Numbered from the stretch's first letter, positions 26,643-49,530 are shown. The stretch: 64,000 nucleotides of DNA from an uncultured Thermodesulfobacteriota bacterium (GCA_964611295.1 CAZSWV010000002.1:8303-72302); one strand, 5' to 3'. The notes: a model not told the origin generated them from the sequence alone. Translations and numbers: made by a program.

Positions 26643-26995
26643 GGGGGCGAATGGGTTTCGACGGGGGTAGGGAGAAAGGGAAGCGCATGCCGAGGTCCCA
26701 CTCCTCGTTAAACAGTGGGGCAAACACAAGTGCCGACTCGTATGAGTACGCTTTGGCCGCTTAATTGATCGGCCAACGTCCTGCGGGATTTGCCCGTAGG
26801 TCCCGTTAGGGCGTCAGAGAATACGGGCTTGGTCCTTGCTAAGGCTCATAGGCAAGGACGACGCCTTTATGAGCTAGTCCTTATGGTTTCCTGCCTGTGG
26901 GGACCATAGGGGCGAAAGTTAAACACAGGCTAAGCATGTAGGGCTTCCTTTCAAACTACTCTCGGACGCGGGTTCGATTCCCGCCGCCTCCACCA
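26643..26995 (+). ncRNA. ssrA: tmRNA; tag peptide (A)ADSYEYALAA*
   Basis: 5' GGGGGCG...TTCGAC and 3' GGTTCGATTCCCGCCGCCTCCACCA with a G-U acceptor pair; tag ORF 26732-26764; directly after smpB. Confidence 0.96.
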
Positions 26996-28388: not shown

Positions 28389-29456
28389 GTGAAAAAGGCT
28401 ATTATTTCTGCTCAAAAACTAAGAAACGTTATAGATTTTTTCGACAGGCTTGTGGGAAGCCTTGAGCCTCTTAGACGTGAGCTTTTGTTCTTTTGGGAGG
28501 ACGGGCTTAAGTTAGGGGCTACTGATGGTTGCCTTTTCGCCCATTTGTCTTTGCCTTGGTTTGATTTCAATCCAAAAAGGATAGCGCTGGCAGTTCCTCT
28601 TGATCCTCTCAAGGGGTTCTTAAAGGAACTTAAAGGCAGTATAGAGGTAGAGATAGGTGAGGTTTTGAGACTAAAGGCTGAGAAGAACTCCTTAGAAATC
28701 CGGGCGCGTAAAAAACCAAGAATATCTCCCTGGCCTAAAGGGGTAACGTTAGGAGAGGTTTCTTCAGCAAAACTGAGGTCGGCTTTGGATTTCCCCAGCG
28801 TACATCTGACAGATGCCGATACGGTAAGACTTGTAGCATCGGGAGGGATTCTCTATGTAATGGGGCATTCTGAAGGTGTAACAGGAGTTTCCAAATGGCA
28901 ATGGGGTTTGGATATGTCTTTTCAGTTGATAATCCCTTATGCAAGTGCAAGGCACTTAGTAAAATGTCTCGAAATGGTAAAAAAGGAGACCCTCGCTGTT
29001 GAAGCTGTTGAAGGATATCCCTTCTTTAAAGCAGGGGCTTTGATGTTAGGGATAACCGGAGAGATACCGAAGGGAGACCCTCCTGAACTCCTCAATTTCC
29101 TTTTCTCAGAACACCAAGTTCCGACCTGGGTGGTACTTTCTAAGGAGATGAGGTCCCTTTTTTCACGTGCTGCAAAGGTGGAAAGGTTTGGGGCAACGCG
29201 TACTATTTTGGCCTTTTCTGAAGAAAAGATCCAAGTAATCGTCGAAACCCCATATGGGCGTTTTGTCGCCTATGAAGGAGTCCAAGGGGCCAAGGATCCT
29301 AGTAAGTGCGAAATGCCTTTGAAGGCCGAAAAGGTGTGGCGCCTTGTATCAAGGTTTACTCATGAAACTGCCTTTTGGTATAAGAGCCCAAAGGGAATGC
29401 TTCTAACTGATGGAAAGTCCAAAGCCATCTTACTTGAAGGCGTAATAAGGCAATAA
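28389..29456 (+). CDS. Hypothetical protein, probable divergent DNA sliding-clamp (DnaN-fold) paralog
   Basis: 355 aa with DnaN-like segments in order: LKLGATDG, LAVP..PLKGFLKEL, SSAKLRSAL, LIIP..SARHLVKCL, EMRSLFSRAA, LAFSEEKIQV. Confidence 0.55.
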   Translation: MKKAIISAQKLRNVIDFFDRLVGSLEPLRRELLFFWEDGLKLGATDGCLFAHLSLPWFDFNPKRIALAVPLDPLKGFLKELKGSIEVEIGEVLRLKAEKNSLEIRARKKPRISPWPKGVTLGEVSSAKLRSALDFPSVHLTDADTVRLVASGGILYVMGHSEGVTGVSKWQWGLDMSFQLIIPYASARHLVKCLEMVKKETLAVEAVEGYPFFKAGALMLGITGEIPKGDPPELLNFLFSEHQVPTWVVLSKEMRSLFSRAAKVERFGATRTILAFSEEKIQVIVETPYGRFVAYEGVQGAKDPSKCEMPLKAEKVWRLVSRFTHETAFWYKSPKGMLLTDGKSKAILLEGVIRQ

Positions 29457-29467
29457 AAGAATTGACT

Positions 29468-30499
29468 ATGTCGGACAAGCCCTTCTTAAAAGTGGCCATC
29501 CTCCAAAAACCTGAAGGAGATAACGTCCGCTGTTTGACATGTGAGCGACAATGCCTGCTACGGCCAGGACAAAGAGGTTGGTGTAAGACCCGTGTTAACA
29601 GAGGTGGTGTGCTTTTTACTACCGTTTACGGGGCTGTTTCCTCTATATCCGTTAACCCTATCGAGAAAAAACCACTGTTTCACTTTTATCCGGGTAGCTT
29701 AAGCCTCACAGTTGGTAGTTGGTCATGTAATTTTTCTTGCCCATGGTGTCAAAACTGGGAGATCAGCAAAAGGATAGGGGAAAGACAGTTCATGAGTCCT
29801 GAGGACTTTGTAAAAATGGCCATGGATTTGGGATGTGAGGGGACTTCTATAAGCTTCAACGAACCAACCCTGCTGATTGAATGGTCCATTGAGGTATTCC
29901 GTTTGGCTCGGAACAAAGGACTTTATAACACCTTTGTCAGCAACGGCTATATGACCCTTCAAGCTCTCAAACTACTGATTGAGGCAGGGCTTGATGCTAT
30001 AAACGTGGATATGAAAGGGGACAAAGAAGCCGTTAAGAACTTCTGCGGAGCAGACGTGGAAGTGGTGTGGAGAAATTGTCGTTATTTAAAAGAGCAGGGT
30101 GTACATCTCGAGTTGACAACGCTTGTAATACCTGGAGTTAATGACAGTGAAACTACCTTAAAGGAGATAGCTACTCGCATAGCTTATGAACTAGGGGCAG
30201 AAACGCCTTGGCATCTCACCGCCTATTATCCAGCTTATCTTTTCAATGCTCCTTCTACCCCTGTTGAAGTATTGGAAAGGGCTTATACAATAGGTAAAGA
30301 AGTAGGCCTTAAGTTCGTTTATATTGGGAACGTACCTGGTCATCCTCTAGAAAACACCTACTGTCCTAATTGTGGACAGATCCTTATAGAACGATATGGA
30401 GTAAGGACGACCAGGTGTTATATTTCAAAACCCATATGTCCAAATTGTGGACAAAGCTTGCCCATAGTCGGCTTAGTGGGAAAAGTCCGAAGGGGTTGA
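29468..30499 (+). CDS. amrS: AmmeMemoRadiSam system radical SAM enzyme
   Basis: CLTCERQC..C, NPIEKKPLFHFYPG, CNFSCPWCQNWEIS, NEP, YIGNVPG...TYCPNCG. Confidence 0.9.
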   Translation: MSDKPFLKVAILQKPEGDNVRCLTCERQCLLRPGQRGWCKTRVNRGGVLFTTVYGAVSSISVNPIEKKPLFHFYPGSLSLTVGSWSCNFSCPWCQNWEISKRIGERQFMSPEDFVKMAMDLGCEGTSISFNEPTLLIEWSIEVFRLARNKGLYNTFVSNGYMTLQALKLLIEAGLDAINVDMKGDKEAVKNFCGADVEVVWRNCRYLKEQGVHLELTTLVIPGVNDSETTLKEIATRIAYELGAETPWHLTAYYPAYLFNAPSTPVEVLERAYTIGKEVGLKFVYIGNVPGHPLENTYCPNCGQILIERYGVRTTRCYISKPICPNCGQSLPIVGLVGKVRRG

Positions 30500-30524
30500 C
30501 CGTTTTACACCTATGTGTTAAAGA

Positions 30525-30692
30525 CTTGAGTAAGCGGGTGCCCATTGTGGGCTTAAAAGGGAAGTGGGGTGAAAATCCCCCGCGGTCCCGCCGCCGTGAC
30601 CGGGGACGAAACCCGCAGTAGGCCACTGGGGCCTTTGGCCCTGGGAAGGTGCGGGGAGTAGGAAGATCCGGGAGCCGGAAGACCTGCCCGCT
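30525..30692 (+). promoter_or_regulatory. Cobalamin riboswitch (aptamer)
   Basis: AAAAGGGAAG..GGTGAAAATCC, CCCGCCGCCGTGA, GCCACTG..GGGAAGG, AGCCGGAAGACCTGCC; upstream of btuB. Confidence 0.92.
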
Positions 30693-30751
30693 AGATAGCC
30701 CGTTCCTCCTCGAGGGTTAGGGGGTAGGGCAGGGGCGAAGGAAACGGGTGC

Positions 30752-30790
30752 AGCCCCTGAGACTATTTGGGTCTCAGGGGTTTTTCGTTT
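30752..30790 (+). terminator. Intrinsic terminator in the riboswitch expression platform
   Basis: CCCCTGAGAC-TATTTGG-GTCTCAGGGG-TTTTTCGTTT. Confidence 0.85.
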
Positions 30791-30837
30791 TATTGGCGGG
30801 GCCCAGGGGGTGAGACTTTGAGGGAGGAGGTAGTATC

Positions 30838-32652
30838 ATGAAGCGGTTTTGGTTTTTGTTGTTGGCGTTATTGTGGGCCTTGCCGGTTATGGCGCAGGAA
30901 GAAACTGAGGTAGAAGAAATAGTCGTCACAGCTATAAGGGTACCAATTCCAAGGGCAGAAGTTGGGTCTTCAGTGGTAGTGATAACTGAAGAGGAGATGA
31001 AGCAAAGAGGTTATACCCTGTTGAAGGACCTATTGAAGGCGGAGACTGGTGTAGATGTGGTGTCTACAGGTGGTCCTGGGTCGCAAACCTCAGTTTTCAT
31101 CAGGGGTATGGAGTCTTATCACACCTTGATATTGATAGACGGTATGAAAGTTGGAGATCCAAGCCTTATGCAGAGGCAATTCGACTTAGCCAACCTTACC
31201 TTAGACAATGTAGAACGGATAGAGGTAATAAAAGGTCCTCAAAGCGTACTTTACGGTTCTGATGCGATGGGAGGAGTTATAAATATCATAACGAAAAAAG
31301 GGAAAGGGAAGGCCCATTTTATGGCTTCAATGGAAGGTGGCTCGTATGACACCTTTAGGCAGTCTATCGGTGGTTCAGGCCAAGTAGGCCATTTGAGCTT
31401 TTCCCTGGGCACTTCACATACAAAGACACAGGGTTTTTCAGCATACCGTGAAGGAAGAGAAAAAGACGGTTGGGAAAATTATAGCTTTTCGACGCGTATA
31501 GAGCTTACAGATTGCCAGAAAATTTCAGGTGGCGTGCTTTTGCGTCTACATAAAGGGGTAACAGAGTTAGATGCTGGTTATGACCTAAAGGGATATAGAG
31601 TAGACAAGGACGAAGTATTTTTCTCCTCTTTTTTAGATTTCAAGCCTTTTGAAAAATGGAAGCAAAGGTTGACTTTTGGGATAAGCGATTACAGGAGGGA
31701 GTATGTAGACGCCCCCTGGGGTGACTCGAGGTACTCTGGAAGAAGGTATGAAGTAAGCTGGCAAAACGAAGTCAAACCCCTTCCTTTTTATTCCTTGCTG
31801 TTTGGAGCTGATTACGGACGCGAAGAGATGGATCAAATGGAACCATGGTCAGAACTTAGTGGATCTACTTATACTCTTAGCTTATTTTTACAAAACCAAC
31901 TTAAGTTGAAAGGTTCTATTACTACCTTAGGTTTAAGGTTTGACGACCATAAGGAGTTCGGTCAAAGGTTCACCTATAGGATCACAGAGGCCTTTTCTTT
32001 TGACAAAACCCAAACGAAAATAAAAGGAAGCCTCGGTACAGGCTTTCGAGCTCCGAGCTTATATGAGCTCTATTCGGAATACGGTAGCCCTGACCTTAAA
32101 CCAGAAAAGTCCATAGGGTGGGACTTTGGTATAGAACAGTCCCTTTGGAAAGGGAAGCTCTTTTTGGATTTAGTTTATTTCGAAAATAGGGTGAAGGACC
32201 TCATCGAGTTTTGGTATCCAGGTGATCTTTGGTGGTTAGGGAAGTATGTGAACATAGCAAAGGCCTTTATGAGAGGGGTTGAGGCTTCTGTAGAGCTTAG
32301 GCCTTTTGATGGGATATGGTGTAGGTTGGCTTATACTTATACACATACCGAAGACGAAAAAGGCCAGAGGCTTCCTAGGCGCCCGTATAACAAGGTGAAG
32401 ATGGCCTTCGGTAGGTCTTTCGGAGATAGGGCAAATGTCTTTTCAGAGGTGATATGGGTCGATGACAGACTCGATAGTGGAGAAAAGCTTTCTGATTACC
32501 TTTTGGCTAACGTTTCTGGTAGCTTTAAGCTTAAAAAAGGAGTGGAGTTGTTTTTAAGGGGAGAAAACCTCTTTAACAGACGTTATGAAGAAGCCAAAGG
32601 TTATGGTACAGCTGGTCGATCTTTCTATGGAGGAATAAGGATTGAGTTTTGA
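30838..32652 (+). CDS. btuB: TonB-dependent cobalamin receptor
   Basis: Signal peptide, EIVVTA TonB box, RIEVIKGPQSVLYGSDAMGGVINIIT, C-terminal Phe; under a B12 riboswitch. Confidence 0.9.
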   Translation: MKRFWFLLLALLWALPVMAQEETEVEEIVVTAIRVPIPRAEVGSSVVVITEEEMKQRGYTLLKDLLKAETGVDVVSTGGPGSQTSVFIRGMESYHTLILIDGMKVGDPSLMQRQFDLANLTLDNVERIEVIKGPQSVLYGSDAMGGVINIITKKGKGKAHFMASMEGGSYDTFRQSIGGSGQVGHLSFSLGTSHTKTQGFSAYREGREKDGWENYSFSTRIELTDCQKISGGVLLRLHKGVTELDAGYDLKGYRVDKDEVFFSSFLDFKPFEKWKQRLTFGISDYRREYVDAPWGDSRYSGRRYEVSWQNEVKPLPFYSLLFGADYGREEMDQMEPWSELSGSTYTLSLFLQNQLKLKGSITTLGLRFDDHKEFGQRFTYRITEAFSFDKTQTKIKGSLGTGFRAPSLYELYSEYGSPDLKPEKSIGWDFGIEQSLWKGKLFLDLVYFENRVKDLIEFWYPGDLWWLGKYVNIAKAFMRGVEASVELRPFDGIWCRLAYTYTHTEDEKGQRLPRRPYNKVKMAFGRSFGDRANVFSEVIWVDDRLDSGEKLSDYLLANVSGSFKLKKGVELFLRGENLFNRRYEEAKGYGTAGRSFYGGIRIEF

Positions 32653-33571
32653 TGAGGAAAGAGCCATAGACGAATTGCTTTCCATGTTGAGGGGAGCCCT
32701 TAGGGTCTTAAGGCCTCAAGGGCTCCTCCTTTCGGGTGGGATTGATTCGGGACTTCTTATGTGCCTTTGTCCTGATCTTGTGGCATTAAGCGTGTCCCTT
32801 GAAGATCAGGGAGCCGATCTCCACTACGTGGACATAATAAAGCGTTACCTTGGGGTTCGGATCGAGGTGATAAAGATCAGTATAAATGAGGCCCTTGCTG
32901 CTATTCCTAAAGTCATTGAAATCCTCTCTTCCTTTGATCCAGCCTTGCCTAACGACTTGGCAGTTTACTTCGGCCTTAGGGCTTTCCTTCAACTGAAGGT
33001 GGAAAAGGTCGCAACTGGCGATGGGGCTGACGAACTTTTCGGTGGGTATGAATACATGCAGAATTTAAAGGATCTACGCTCTTATCAGCTTTCGTTGATT
33101 CCGTACCTTTCCTTTTCTTCGGCCAAATTAGGGAAAGCCCTTGGAATTGAAGTCCTTCAACCCTTCCTTTCAGCCCAAATGGTGAGGTTTGCTTTGGAGA
33201 TCCCCAATCATTGGAAGATAAGGCAAGAAAAGGGGAAAAACTTTGGGAAATGGCTTTTACGGAAGGCCCTTTCGCGCTTTTTACCAGAAGATTACGTCTG
33301 GCAGGAAAAAAGGCCGCTAGAAATTGGGACGGGGATGGTGTACTTAAGAAAACTTATCTCCCAATGGATTACAGACGAGGAATTTGAAAGGAAGAAAAGA
33401 CTTTACGGCATGACCTTTTACTGTAAGGAACACCTATACTTTTTTGAAATTTTTAAAGAAGTAATAGGGGAAATACCTCCTCCCAAAGAAGGGGAAATCC
33501 CTTGTCCCAATTGTGGGGCAGGGAAGCAACCAGGGAGTAAACATTGTAAGGTCTGTGGGGTCTTATCATGA
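32642..33571 (+). CDS. Asparagine synthetase C-terminal (ATP-PPase) domain-only protein with C-terminal Zn ribbon
   Basis: LLSGGIDS, TGDGADELFGGY, GKWLLRKA, C-terminal CPNCG...HCKVCG; no glutaminase domain. Confidence 0.82.
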   Translation: MSFDEERAIDELLSMLRGALRVLRPQGLLLSGGIDSGLLMCLCPDLVALSVSLEDQGADLHYVDIIKRYLGVRIEVIKISINEALAAIPKVIEILSSFDPALPNDLAVYFGLRAFLQLKVEKVATGDGADELFGGYEYMQNLKDLRSYQLSLIPYLSFSSAKLGKALGIEVLQPFLSAQMVRFALEIPNHWKIRQEKGKNFGKWLLRKALSRFLPEDYVWQEKRPLEIGTGMVYLRKLISQWITDEEFERKKRLYGMTFYCKEHLYFFEIFKEVIGEIPPPKEGEIPCPNCGAGKQPGSKHCKVCGVLS

Positions 33572-34248
33572 GGGCTTTTGTCTCTTTCAGCGGGGGAAAG
33601 GAAAGCGTCTTTGCCTTTTTCCACGCCCTTAGGCAAGGGATAAAGGTAGAAGTGCTTTTCACCATGCTGAATTCTAAAGGAAAAAAGACAAGGGGACATG
33701 GGTTACACAAGGATTTGATAATGGCCCAAGCCCAGGCCTTGAGGGTTCCTGTTGTATTTGCCAACGCTTCTTGGAGGCGTTACGAAGAAACTTTCAAAAG
33801 GGTTCTAAGGAGGTTTAGAGCCAATGGCATAGAGGCAGGGGTATTTGGAGATCTATATTTGGAAGAACACCGAGAGTGGGTGGAAAGGGTGTGTAACGAA
33901 GTGGGCCTTAAACCAATACTACCCCTCTGGGGACAAGACCCTGATGGGCTTTTACAAGAATTCCTTTCGCATGGCTTCAAGGCAGTCCTTGTGGCAATAA
34001 AAGACCAACGGATCCCAGTAGAACTGTTGGGGAAATTCCTCGAAGAAGAAGTTATTAAGAGCTTAAAGGAAATTGGCGTTGACCCCTGTGGCGAAAGAGG
34101 AGAATATCACACCTTGGTTGTGGATGGTCCTTTGTTCTCTAGAAGCCTTTCCATAGAAGCTTTTAAAAAAAGGAAGGGCAAAAAAGGGATCTTCCTTGAA
34201 ATACTTAAATTTACATTATTGGACAAAGATACTAGCGTTTCTCTTTAG
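33568..34248 (+). CDS. DUF71/COG2102 (diphthine-ammonia-ligase-like) ATP-binding protein
   Basis: SFSGGKES, GVFGDL, PLWG, DPCGERGEYHTLVVDGPLF. Confidence 0.88.
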   Translation: MRAFVSFSGGKESVFAFFHALRQGIKVEVLFTMLNSKGKKTRGHGLHKDLIMAQAQALRVPVVFANASWRRYEETFKRVLRRFRANGIEAGVFGDLYLEEHREWVERVCNEVGLKPILPLWGQDPDGLLQEFLSHGFKAVLVAIKDQRIPVELLGKFLEEEVIKSLKEIGVDPCGERGEYHTLVVDGPLFSRSLSIEAFKKRKGKKGIFLEILKFTLLDKDTSVSL

Positions 34249-35068
34249 CGTAACCGCTATATCTTTAAGTCAAGCCATTATCATTAAAGACGATCAGGGT
34301 AGAATTGTGACTTTCGAAAACCCTCCACAGAAGGTTATTTCCCTTGCACCATCTTTTACAAAGGCCCTTTTCCTCTTAGGGGTTGGGGATAGGATTGTAG
34401 GAGTTACCATGTATTGTAAAGACTACGTAAAGGTCCAATCCCTACCAAAAGTGGGGACTGTAATGAGTTTTGACATAGAAAAAGTCCTGAGCTTGAAGCC
34501 CGATCTCATAGTGGCAACACCTTTGGCCAATAGAGTACAACTTGATAAACTAGAGGCCCTCGGTATAAAGGTTTTGGTATTTAAAAGCCCAGATAGTTTC
34601 CGTGAACTCTGTGAGCAGTTTGTCAAGTTGGGAACTCTTTTCTCCCTTGACCAAAAAGCCCTTTACATCGTAAAGCTTGCCCAAAGGGAACTCGAGGCCA
34701 TAAAAAAGGGAGCAAAAAGGTCCCCTAGGGTCTTTGTACAGCTCGGAACTGACCCTATATGGGCAGCAGGGAAAGATAGCTTCATCGGGGAAGCAGTAAG
34801 CCTTGCAGGGGGTCTTGTACCTATACCAGGGAGAGGAGGGCCTGTGGAAAGGGAAGAAGTCCTTAAGATCAACCCCGACGTTATCTTAATAGTGAACATG
34901 GGCATTGTTGGGGAAAGGGAAAGAAGGAGATGGAAGGCTTTCACATCCTTAAAGGCCGTAAGGGAGAACAGGATATTTTTAATTGACCCGGATTTGTACT
35001 GTAGCCCTACACCTTTGAGCTTTGTCCAAGGTGTCAAGGAGCTTTACAGGTTGTTACAGAGTCCATAA
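34196..35068 (+). CDS. Cobalamin ABC transporter periplasmic binding protein (BtuF-like)
   Basis: DDQGR.V....PPQKVISLAPS.T, VGVT.YC, EKVLSLKPDL, KAVRENRI; in the riboswitch operon. Confidence 0.82.
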   Translation: MKYLNLHYWTKILAFLFSVTAISLSQAIIIKDDQGRIVTFENPPQKVISLAPSFTKALFLLGVGDRIVGVTMYCKDYVKVQSLPKVGTVMSFDIEKVLSLKPDLIVATPLANRVQLDKLEALGIKVLVFKSPDSFRELCEQFVKLGTLFSLDQKALYIVKLAQRELEAIKKGAKRSPRVFVQLGTDPIWAAGKDSFIGEAVSLAGGLVPIPGRGGPVEREEVLKINPDVILIVNMGIVGERERRRWKAFTSLKAVRENRIFLIDPDLYCSPTPLSFVQGVKELYRLLQSP

Positions 35069-49454: not shown

Positions 49455-49530
49455 GGGCCGTTAACTCAGGCGGCAGAGTACCGGCCTTTTAAGCCGGGAG
49501 TCGCAGGTTCGAGTCCTGCACGGCCCACCA
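49455..49530 (+). tRNA. tRNA-Lys (UUU)
   Basis: GGGCCGT..ACGGCCC-A-CCA acceptor; anticodon arm CCGGC-CTTTTAA-GCCGG; GGTTCGAGTCC; 76 nt; TTGACA at 49418. Confidence 0.97.

Follow-up and report, generated by a model that had tools for sequence, protein, structure and literature searches.

A cobalamin-riboswitch operon with an AsnB-like protein and DUF71-B12: candidate PP-loop corrinoid amidoligases in place of CbiP

A stretch of 64,000 nucleotides from an uncultured Thermodesulfobacteriota bacterium (GCA_964611295.1 CAZSWV010000002.1:8303-72302), hereafter the window, carries a vitamin B12 riboswitch operon in which two genes for amide-forming types of enzyme stand between the genes for a BtuB-like receptor and a BtuF-like binding protein. 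One encodes a protein consisting of an AsnB synthetase domain only with a zinc ribbon, which we call AsnBl; the other encodes a member of the DUF71-B12 subgroup. An initial annotation of this DNA had proposed that the two re-amidate hydrolysed corrin side chains. The question raised by this locus is what such enzymes do in a corrinoid operon. From comparisons of genomes and gene neighbourhoods, we consider that AsnBl and DUF71-B12 are probably ammonia-dependent PP-loop corrinoid amidoligases that act before CbiB, as replacements of CbiP and perhaps also of CbiA.

The window operon

Positions are window coordinates, the window being contig C2:8303-72302 of the source genome (G000, hereafter the own genome). 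The operon comprises the following features:

30519-30705, plus strand: cobalamin riboswitch aptamer (RF00174, 120.7 bits, E 9.9e-30, full model 1-189)
30752-30792, plus strand: intrinsic terminator as expression platform (13-bp G+C-rich stem, 5-nt loop, U-rich tail; terminator scan)
30838-32652, plus strand: BtuB-like TonB-dependent outer-membrane corrinoid receptor, 604 aa, signal peptide (PF07715 Plug 2e-28, PF00593 1e-36)
32642-33571, plus strand: AsnBl, AsnB synthetase (PP-loop) domain only with C-terminal four-cysteine zinc ribbon, 309 aa (PF00733 9e-31)
33568-34248, plus strand: DUF71-B12 subgroup PP-loop ATP pyrophosphatase, 226 aa (PF01902 1e-48)
34196-35068, plus strand: BtuF-like periplasmic corrinoid-binding protein, 290 aa, signal peptide (PF01497 7e-29)

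The Rfam covariance model covers the full aptamer at a score far above its gathering score of 31.5, and the start given in the initial annotation, 30525, falls 6 nt inside it. The terminator hairpin proper (30752-30782) is followed by TTTTCGTTTT in the terminator scan. RNA folding gave it -51.8 kcal/mol (z = -4.09), a stability reached by none of 200 shuffles, and its position 46 nt past the aptamer and 55 nt ahead of btuB is that of an expression platform. The four genes overlap by 11 nt, 4 nt (ATGA) and 53 nt in gene order, and the operon ends at 35068, beyond which lie convergent housekeeping genes (GNAT, secG, tpi, pgk, gap). The riboswitch and attenuator ahead of four overlapping genes are thus as initially described.

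The top NCBIfam model for the receptor is TonB-B12 (TIGR01779), at 299 bits under the cut-off of 599.7, and its assignment as BtuB rests on the riboswitch control. The BtuF-like protein matches PF01497 with 101 bits and reaches 78.4 bits with the BtuF model NF002894 (cut-off 234). No btuC or btuD follows the btuF-like gene in the Pfam and NCBIfam annotation of the operon, as the initial annotation had noted; both genes are nevertheless present on the same contig, behind a second riboswitch. This riboswitch (C2:112363-112548, minus strand; locus L084, C2:100000-114600), about 70 kb off, controls a btuF-like gene, btuC, btuD, cbiC, cbiK, a CobF-like methylase gene, cbiET, cbiL, cbiF and cbiGH. 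Upstream in this locus, a 479-aa frame matches the model for uroporphyrinogen-III methyltransferase (cobA/cysG).

Two proteins of carboxylate-adenylating families

AsnBl matches the Asn_synthase PP-loop domain PF00733 with 108 bits (gathering score 21), and its C-terminus gives a weak match to Zn_ribbon_3, with a CxxC...CxxC arrangement of the four cysteines. Its top NCBIfam model is asparagine synthase B; the match spans only model positions 229-505 of 554, and the scores with the asparagine synthase models (TIGR01536, NF006949) are 122.9 bits (cut-off 499) and 89.6 bits (cut-off 267.1). Pfam and NCBIfam searches found no glutaminase domain in it. With sub-cut-off scores and no class II glutaminase, AsnBl falls outside the glutamine-hydrolysing asparagine synthases.

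The AlphaFold (AF2) model of AsnBl (pLDDT 91.8) matches the synthetase domain of E. coli AsnB (1CT9) with a TM of 0.72 and a Foldseek E of 9e-14; further fold matches are human ASNS, beta-lactam synthetase and the carbapenam synthetase CarA (both at TM 0.60-0.69), and TsnB9. AsnBl thus shares with AsnB, beta-lactam synthetase and carbapenam synthetase, all PF00733 enzymes, the synthetase fold, the SGGIDS PP-loop and the GDGxDE...GGY motif. Unlike asparagine synthetase B, it is devoid of the N-terminal Ntn glutaminase domain, ends in a zinc ribbon and is encoded in a corrinoid operon. The family is sharply conserved at about 305 residues and has more than 1000 homologs at E<=0.001. At E<=1e-30 among 1.84 billion proteins we counted 288 cluster representatives, a figure that includes weaker-scoring proteins of ordinary AsnB length. 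Seventeen aligned homologs share invariant SGGxDSG (SGGIDSG in the window protein), FDPALPND, GDGxDELFxGY, WGKWxLRK and CxxC...HCxxCG motifs.

The window DUF71 protein matches PF01902 with 166 bits and has the PP-loop motif SGGKES. Its nearest solved structures are 2D13 and 3RJZ, which are the Dph6 diphthine-ammonia ligases PH1257 and PF0828, and it has the Pfam family and the fold class in common with them. However, it scores 115.4 bits with the Dph6 equivalog TIGR03679, below the cut-off of 197.3, and where Dph6 reads GEGGEFET the window protein reads GERGEYHT, with His in place of the last Glu of the Dph6 motif. The GE-x-GE[YF]H signature is found in 26 of 26 aligned members of the subgroup, the window protein (GERGEYH) included; with its PF01902 domain and the E-x-G-E-[FY]-H signature, this protein belongs to DUF71-B12. 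The initial annotation had remarked on SGGKES in place of SGGKDS, but the residue after the PP-loop lysine is E in 15 and D in 11 of these 26 proteins. We dropped it as a functional clue, as E and D alternate within the subgroup.

AsnB synthetase domains and Dph6 form amides via acyl-adenylates, so that both window enzymes are, as initially noted, of carboxylate-adenylating amidoligase families, and the ammonia-dependent carboxylate amidation of Dph6 is the chemistry we propose for the window DUF71 protein. To our knowledge, diphthamide is not present in bacteria. In agreement with the initial annotation, neither asparagine nor diphthamide synthesis is indicated.

The DUF71-B12 subgroup of COG2102/PF01902 was defined, with its E-x-G-E-[FY]-H signature, by de Crecy-Lagard et al. 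in 2012 (PMC3541065); the passages of that paper on the subgroup report B12 transport genes next to 75 of its 102 members, a setting to which the window gene, between btuB and btuF, conforms. A 2016 table by the same group still lists DUF71-B12 as of unknown function (PMC5041015). As to AsnB, the passages of the 2012 paper on asparagine synthetase deal only with AsnB fused to DUF71 in a few archaea, which the authors interpret as supplying ammonia to diphthamide synthesis, and contain no stand-alone AsnB-like partner, although its supplementary tables or SEED subsystem might show the neighbour (PMC3541065). Full-text literature searches, with subscription journals and supplements outside their scope, returned the 2012 paper, articles that cite it and two articles on metagenomic B12 profiling, but no report of an AsnB-like partner or of a CobQ exclusion. 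The AsnB-like partner of DUF71-B12 appears undescribed so far.

A conserved pair in corrinoid operons of many phyla

A tblastn scan of one genome per species yielded 254 confirmed AsnBl loci, and the locus tallies cover the best 80 of these 254, which are the closer relatives of the window AsnBl. The record titles of these 80 point to Thermodesulfobacteriota, Omnitrophota, Planctomycetia, Aerophobetes, Chloroflexota, Nitrospirota, Aminicenantes, Hydrogenedentota, Elusimicrobiota, Actinomycetota, Clostridia and one Archaeoglobus, mostly uncultured sediment- or groundwater-type lineages and not thermophiles alone. Adjacency was tallied from stop-to-stop open reading frames (ORFs); a simple gene caller had lost DUF71 in 7 loci with opposite-strand shadow ORFs. 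The result was as follows:

64 of 80 loci: DUF71 directly downstream of AsnBl
7 of 80 loci: DUF71 downstream, with an inserted gene between (radical SAM/SPASM or IS200 transposase)
6 of 80 loci: no DUF71, although 800 bp or more of sequence follow AsnBl
3 of 80 loci: position of DUF71 not judgeable

The usual gene order is cobC-cobU-cobT-cobS-cbiB-cobD-AsnBl-DUF71-btuF-btuC-btuD-cobA-btuB, with variations. BtuF is encoded in 57, BtuC in 49 and CbiB in 32 of the best 80 loci, so that the pair clusters with B12 genes. Of two sets of AsnBl loci tested for an upstream cobalamin riboswitch, the first has one in 9 of 12 and the second in 10 of 11, the archaeon being the sole miss of the second set; in all, these are 19 of 23 loci. 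The AsnBl-DUF71 pair is therefore a standing member of a riboswitch-controlled operon for corrinoid import, adenosylation and nucleotide-loop assembly. It usually stands beside cbiB and cobD, at whose step cobyric acid is consumed, and because the pair adjoins these genes, it would act at a step before nucleotide-loop assembly and not in the mending of finished B12.

The six long DUF71-B12 homologs are all fused to a B12-type or transport partner, namely CobA, a CobD-type aminotransferase, BtuF or an ABC ATPase, and none of the six carries an AsnB domain. No AsnBl homolog above 541 aa was found at E<=1e-30, which the search itself rates as weak evidence. One AsnBl representative is fused to a MobA-like NTP transferase, the family to which we take archaeal CobY to belong, and two have N-terminal regions resembling MMACHC, a cobalamin-processing chaperone, with weak scores of 23.6 and 21.9 bits under the cut-off of 27. 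These fusions are consistent with cytoplasmic action of the pair on corrinoids and are not strong by themselves.

CobQ exclusion and the CobQ slot

We then compared the distribution of AsnBl with that of CobQ/CbiP, scored by TIGR00313, in a set of 61 genomes (the own genome and 60 relatives); absences rest on draft assemblies, except in genomes with stated completeness. AsnBl occurs in 17 and CobQ in 22 of the 61 and both together in none, that is, CobQ is found in 0 of 17 AsnBl-positive genomes vs 22 of the 44 others. Among the 34 CbiB-positive relatives, 19 have CobQ, 13 have AsnBl, none has both and 2 have neither. The same was seen in 50 further AsnBl carriers from other phyla, three of which are also among the relatives so that the sets partly overlap: CobQ exceeded the cut-off in none (best 41 bits), while CbiB was found in 37 and CbiC in 1. 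In a 401-genome sample of the phylum, with AsnBl in 21 and CobQ in 229, CobQ occurs in 1 of the 21 AsnBl carriers vs 228 of the 380 others (Fisher p = 3e-7, a value that overstates the contrast, the genomes being related and not independent). CobB/CbiA was rejected as a clean marker, the family being found in CbiC-negative, CobQ-negative genomes too; these members may be siroheme-amidating paralogues of DsrN type.

Furthermore, in CbiC-negative relatives that have CobQ, cobQ occupies the slot of the pair in the salvage operon. The order is btuB-cbiR-like-cobU-cobT-cbiB-cobD-cobQ-cobS in G074 and cobA-?-btuF-cobQ-btuC-btuD in G081, and cobQ adjoins cbiB in G095 and G107.

Four genomes combine corrin ring genes and the pair with the absence of CobQ, namely the own genome, G147, G154 and G024, the last a Hydrogenedentota assembly whose completeness is not known. 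The own genome (94.4% complete) carries cbiB, cobD, cobU, cobS, cobT and cobA besides the ring genes of the second riboswitch locus. Its best CobQ/CbiP match reaches only 21.8 bits, where the cut-off is 309.9, and a tblastn search with CobQ from a relative was empty; CobB/CbiA gave no match at E<=1. In G147 (100% complete) the pair heads a single ring operon, AsnBl-DUF71-porin-cbiK-btuCDF-cbiL-?-cbiC-cobF-like-cbiET-cbiF-cbiG-cbiH-cbiB-cobD, that contains neither cbiA nor cbiP. G154 (97% complete) has a ring operon beginning cbiM-cbiC/X-cbiD and, elsewhere, btuB-cbiB-cobD-AsnBl-DUF71-btuF-cobA-btuCD-cobUTS. All 14 other CbiC-positive relatives carry CobQ. In the four predicted pathways, exactly the amidation steps appear to be without an assigned gene, and the operon has two orphan genes of amidoligase type. 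The shared slot and the CobQ-less ring genomes therefore suggest more than salvagers that lack a de novo pathway.

As for the remaining ring genes, a CobF-model match above cut-off lies in the anaerobic-type cbi operons without CbiD of the own genome (L084:14038-14775) and of G147 (L102:6236-7018), and G154 has CbiD instead of the CobF-like gene. CobF is the precorrin-6A synthase known from the aerobic route.

Other genes in the same operons

Radical SAM/SPASM proteins of 452-484 aa are encoded between AsnBl and DUF71 in loci L025, L027, L032 and L038, and between cobS and cbiB in L029. Small radical SAM proteins, of Fer4_12 type and 235-292 aa long, are found repeatedly in the salvage operons L011, L015, L038, L042, L051, L056 and L075. 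Genes of the AP_endonuc_2 type (xylose-isomerase-like TIM barrel) recur in L007, L016, L035/L093, L069, L079, L081 and L108, with the domain confirmed by Pfam in L093 and L108 only and assigned by phmmer likeness in the other loci; we take them to resemble the cobamide-remodelling CbiR of Akkermansia. Small DUF4430 proteins are encoded just ahead of btuB in operons of Omnitrophota/Planctomycetia type (L022:10271-10714 and L041:5608-6048). Several operons have more than one cobalamin riboswitch, as in L016:3404-3853, with two aptamers 90 nt apart, L010:3091-3876, L022, and L095, which has three. In G086 (C1:420000-435000, L090), a 391-aa protein has a DUF71 domain after an N-terminal region of about 175 aa without assignment, and a 934-aa CobD-aminotransferase/CobQ fusion is encoded about 5 kb away.

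Within the window, a 355-aa ORF without Pfam or NCBIfam match (28389-29456), adjoining an AmmeMemoRadiSam-type radical SAM gene (29462-30499), lies just upstream of the riboswitch, and the Rfam scan found a tmRNA gene at 26643-26995 and a tRNA gene at 49455-49527.

Proposed function

The initial proposal of re-amidation holds in so far as amidation of corrinoid carboxylates best fits the comparative data. Since AsnBl excludes CobQ, takes its slot and accompanies CobQ-less ring genes, a stand-in for the normal amidation enzymes fits better than repair. What the data show directly is the riboswitch, the genes present, the conserved pair with its operon setting and the phyletic exclusion of CobQ; the substrate, the use of ammonia, the regiospecificity and the division of labour between AsnBl and DUF71 we infer.

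According to this proposal, the riboswitch would permit transcription at low corrinoid, and plentiful B12 would cause termination before btuB. BtuB and BtuF, with BtuCD from the second riboswitch locus, would import corrinoids. In the cytoplasm, AsnBl and DUF71 would each bind ATP at the PP-loop and adenylate a side-chain carboxylate, and ammonia would displace AMP; free ammonia is presumably used, because neither protein carries a glutaminase domain. Cobyrinic acid and its partial amides would in this way become carboxamides, giving (adenosyl)cobyric acid for CbiB, and CbiB and CobD, followed by CobU, CobS and CobT, would finish the cofactor. In most carriers the pair would act in salvage, on under-amidated corrinoids that BtuB and BtuFCD bring in, whereas in a few, the own genome included, it would complete a de novo ring pathway without cbiA and cbiP.

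The reaction proposed here, in which acetate and propionate side chains of the corrin are amidated with ATP ahead of CbiB, is that of CobQ/CbiP and CobB/CbiA, and with CobQ/CbiP the pair also has the operon slot in common, in a distribution that is mutually exclusive for AsnBl with the exception of one genome. There is, however, no homology, as neither window protein matches TIGR00313, TIGR00379 or GATase_3. CobQ and CobB consist of a MinD/DTBS-like P-loop domain and a GATase_3 glutamine amidotransferase and activate by phosphorylation, whereas the pair are PP-loop adenylating enzymes without a glutaminase domain.

Differing regiospecificity of AsnBl and DUF71 would be plausible. Our guess is a CobQ-like role for AsnBl and, for DUF71, action at other sites, perhaps those of CbiA, because AsnBl excludes CobQ, DUF71 accompanies either AsnBl or CobQ (G086, G089) and AsnBl occurs alone (G059); this is the weakest part of the argument. 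Going further, we only tentatively suggest that the PP-loop pair may carry out all six of the CbiA/CbiP side-chain amidations with free ammonia, as an evolutionarily independent solution, which would imply a class of organisms, previously unrecognised, that salvage cobyrinic-acid-level corrinoids from their surroundings, and a CbiA/CbiP-free de novo pathway in some anaerobes.

Several points weigh against the proposal of CbiP-replacing amidoligases. One genome of the phylum sample, G161 (91% complete, 4% contamination), has AsnBl and CobQ together. CbiC is missing in 49 of the 50 other-phyla carriers and in all AsnBl-positive relatives bar the own genome, and because most AsnBl carriers are without CbiC, part of the CobQ exclusion simply reflects a non-producer lifestyle; among CbiC-negative relatives alone, the contrast is weak (CobQ in 0 of 16 with AsnBl vs 8 of 30 without, p = 0.04). 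The CobB family is present in 25 of the 61 relatives, CbiC-negative CobQ-negative genomes included, and in 2 of the 17 that are AsnBl-positive. Of the ring-gene genomes, two (the own genome and G024) are not completely assembled, and relatives of the same genus are without ring genes; the ring genes of the own genome may be a recent acquisition, same-genus genomes being without CbiC. CbiJ (PF02571) was not found in the own genome or in G024 with a model that matched only 2 of 14 control genomes. The two genes also occur apart. In G059 (98% complete), which carries AsnBl, no DUF71 was found genome-wide at E<=1e-10, so that AsnBl can apparently work without DUF71; contig C84 of G059 (L094) reads btuB-AsnBl-btuF-btuC-btuD, and this relative also has cbiB. 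Conversely, DUF71 occurs without AsnBl in 8 relatives, of which G086 and G089 have CobQ. Finally, the evidence is comparative throughout, free under-amidated corrinoids, which the salvage reading presupposes, are not established in nature, and the placement by transport genes equally fits action on imported complete cobamides.

This last placement leads to repair, in which the pair would re-amidate hydrolysed complete cobamides or cobinamides (B12 mono- or dicarboxylic acids) after import, outside the cobyric acid route. We regard this as unlikely, although the chemistry would be identical, the window operon holds uptake genes and the pair only, 13 of the 50 further carriers show no CbiB, and DUF71 stands alongside CobQ in G086 and G089, as an add-on would. 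Flanking cbiB-cobD genes are found in most loci, and a repair enzyme would have no reason to exclude CobQ and take its slot, or to accompany ring genes without CobQ in four genomes. Nor is the heat damage suggested in the initial annotation needed, the 80 loci being mostly from sediment and groundwater lineages of many phyla, and we rejected high-temperature specificity on this habitat spread in the record titles.

It is quite unlikely that the pair performs some other ATP-dependent ligation in the assembly of cobamides, for instance the attachment of a different amine than ammonia to a corrinoid carboxylate, as an alternative linker or to decorate a side chain, or the activation of a precursor of the lower ligand. 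AsnB relatives do make lactams, isopeptides and hydroxamates, with beta-lactam synthetase, CarA and TsnB9 among the fold matches of AsnBl, and several operons have radical SAM genes without an assigned role interspersed with the pair. However, the normal linker is supplied and attached by CbiB and CobD, both of which occur together with the pair, and the CobQ exclusion and the CobQ-less ring operons would be left unexplained.

The 2012 proposal, in the passages of that paper on the subgroup, was not re-amidation but a role of DUF71-B12 in CbiZ-like or pseudo-B12 salvage, and these passages report that CbiB genomes carry either CbiZ or DUF71-B12, the two being anticorrelated in bacteria (PMC3541065). 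Extended to the pair, DUF71-B12 with AsnBl would replace the amidohydrolase CbiZ and free cobyric acid from pseudo-B12 or cobinamide for CbiB, to which the adjoining cbiB and the absence of a detected CbiZ in the own genome would be suited. The present genomes do not reproduce the anticorrelation: cbiZ directly follows DUF71 in one operon in at least four loci (L015, L049, L051 and L075 among the best 80), and CbiZ occurs in 3 of the 17 relatives that carry AsnBl, one of which (G054) has it on the contig of the pair. This co-occurrence argues against the pair as a CbiZ substitute. Moreover, cobinamide has no free carboxylate for adenylation, and a reviewer objected in the 2012 paper that PP-loop ligases are not reused as hydrolases (PMC3541065). 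Such a role is very unlikely.

Ordinary metabolism, with AsnBl making asparagine from aspartate and ammonia next to an unrelated DUF71, is hardly credible: asparagine synthase B is the top model (122.9 bits) and a search of the own genome at E<=1e-20 gave no further AsnB-family gene, but AsnBl scores far under the cut-offs and is without a glutaminase domain, a B12 riboswitch controls its gene, and its adjacency to DUF71 and cob/btu genes is kept across phyla.

Implications

DUF71-B12 has had no settled function since its description in 2012, and should the pair be an analogue of CbiP/CbiA, a long-unassigned family gains a function. The pathway hole would then be closed in genomes that encode ring synthesis and loop assembly yet no amidases, and under-amidated corrinoids would be a new entry point of B12 salvage among sediment and subsurface anaerobes. 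Metagenomic surveys would score cobamide producers and dependants differently, and if the pair does carry out all six amidations, predictions of B12 makers and scavengers from cbiA and cbiP as markers would misclassify the lineages that bear it. The pair would also provide glutaminase-free, ammonia-using enzymes for the engineering of corrinoid synthesis.

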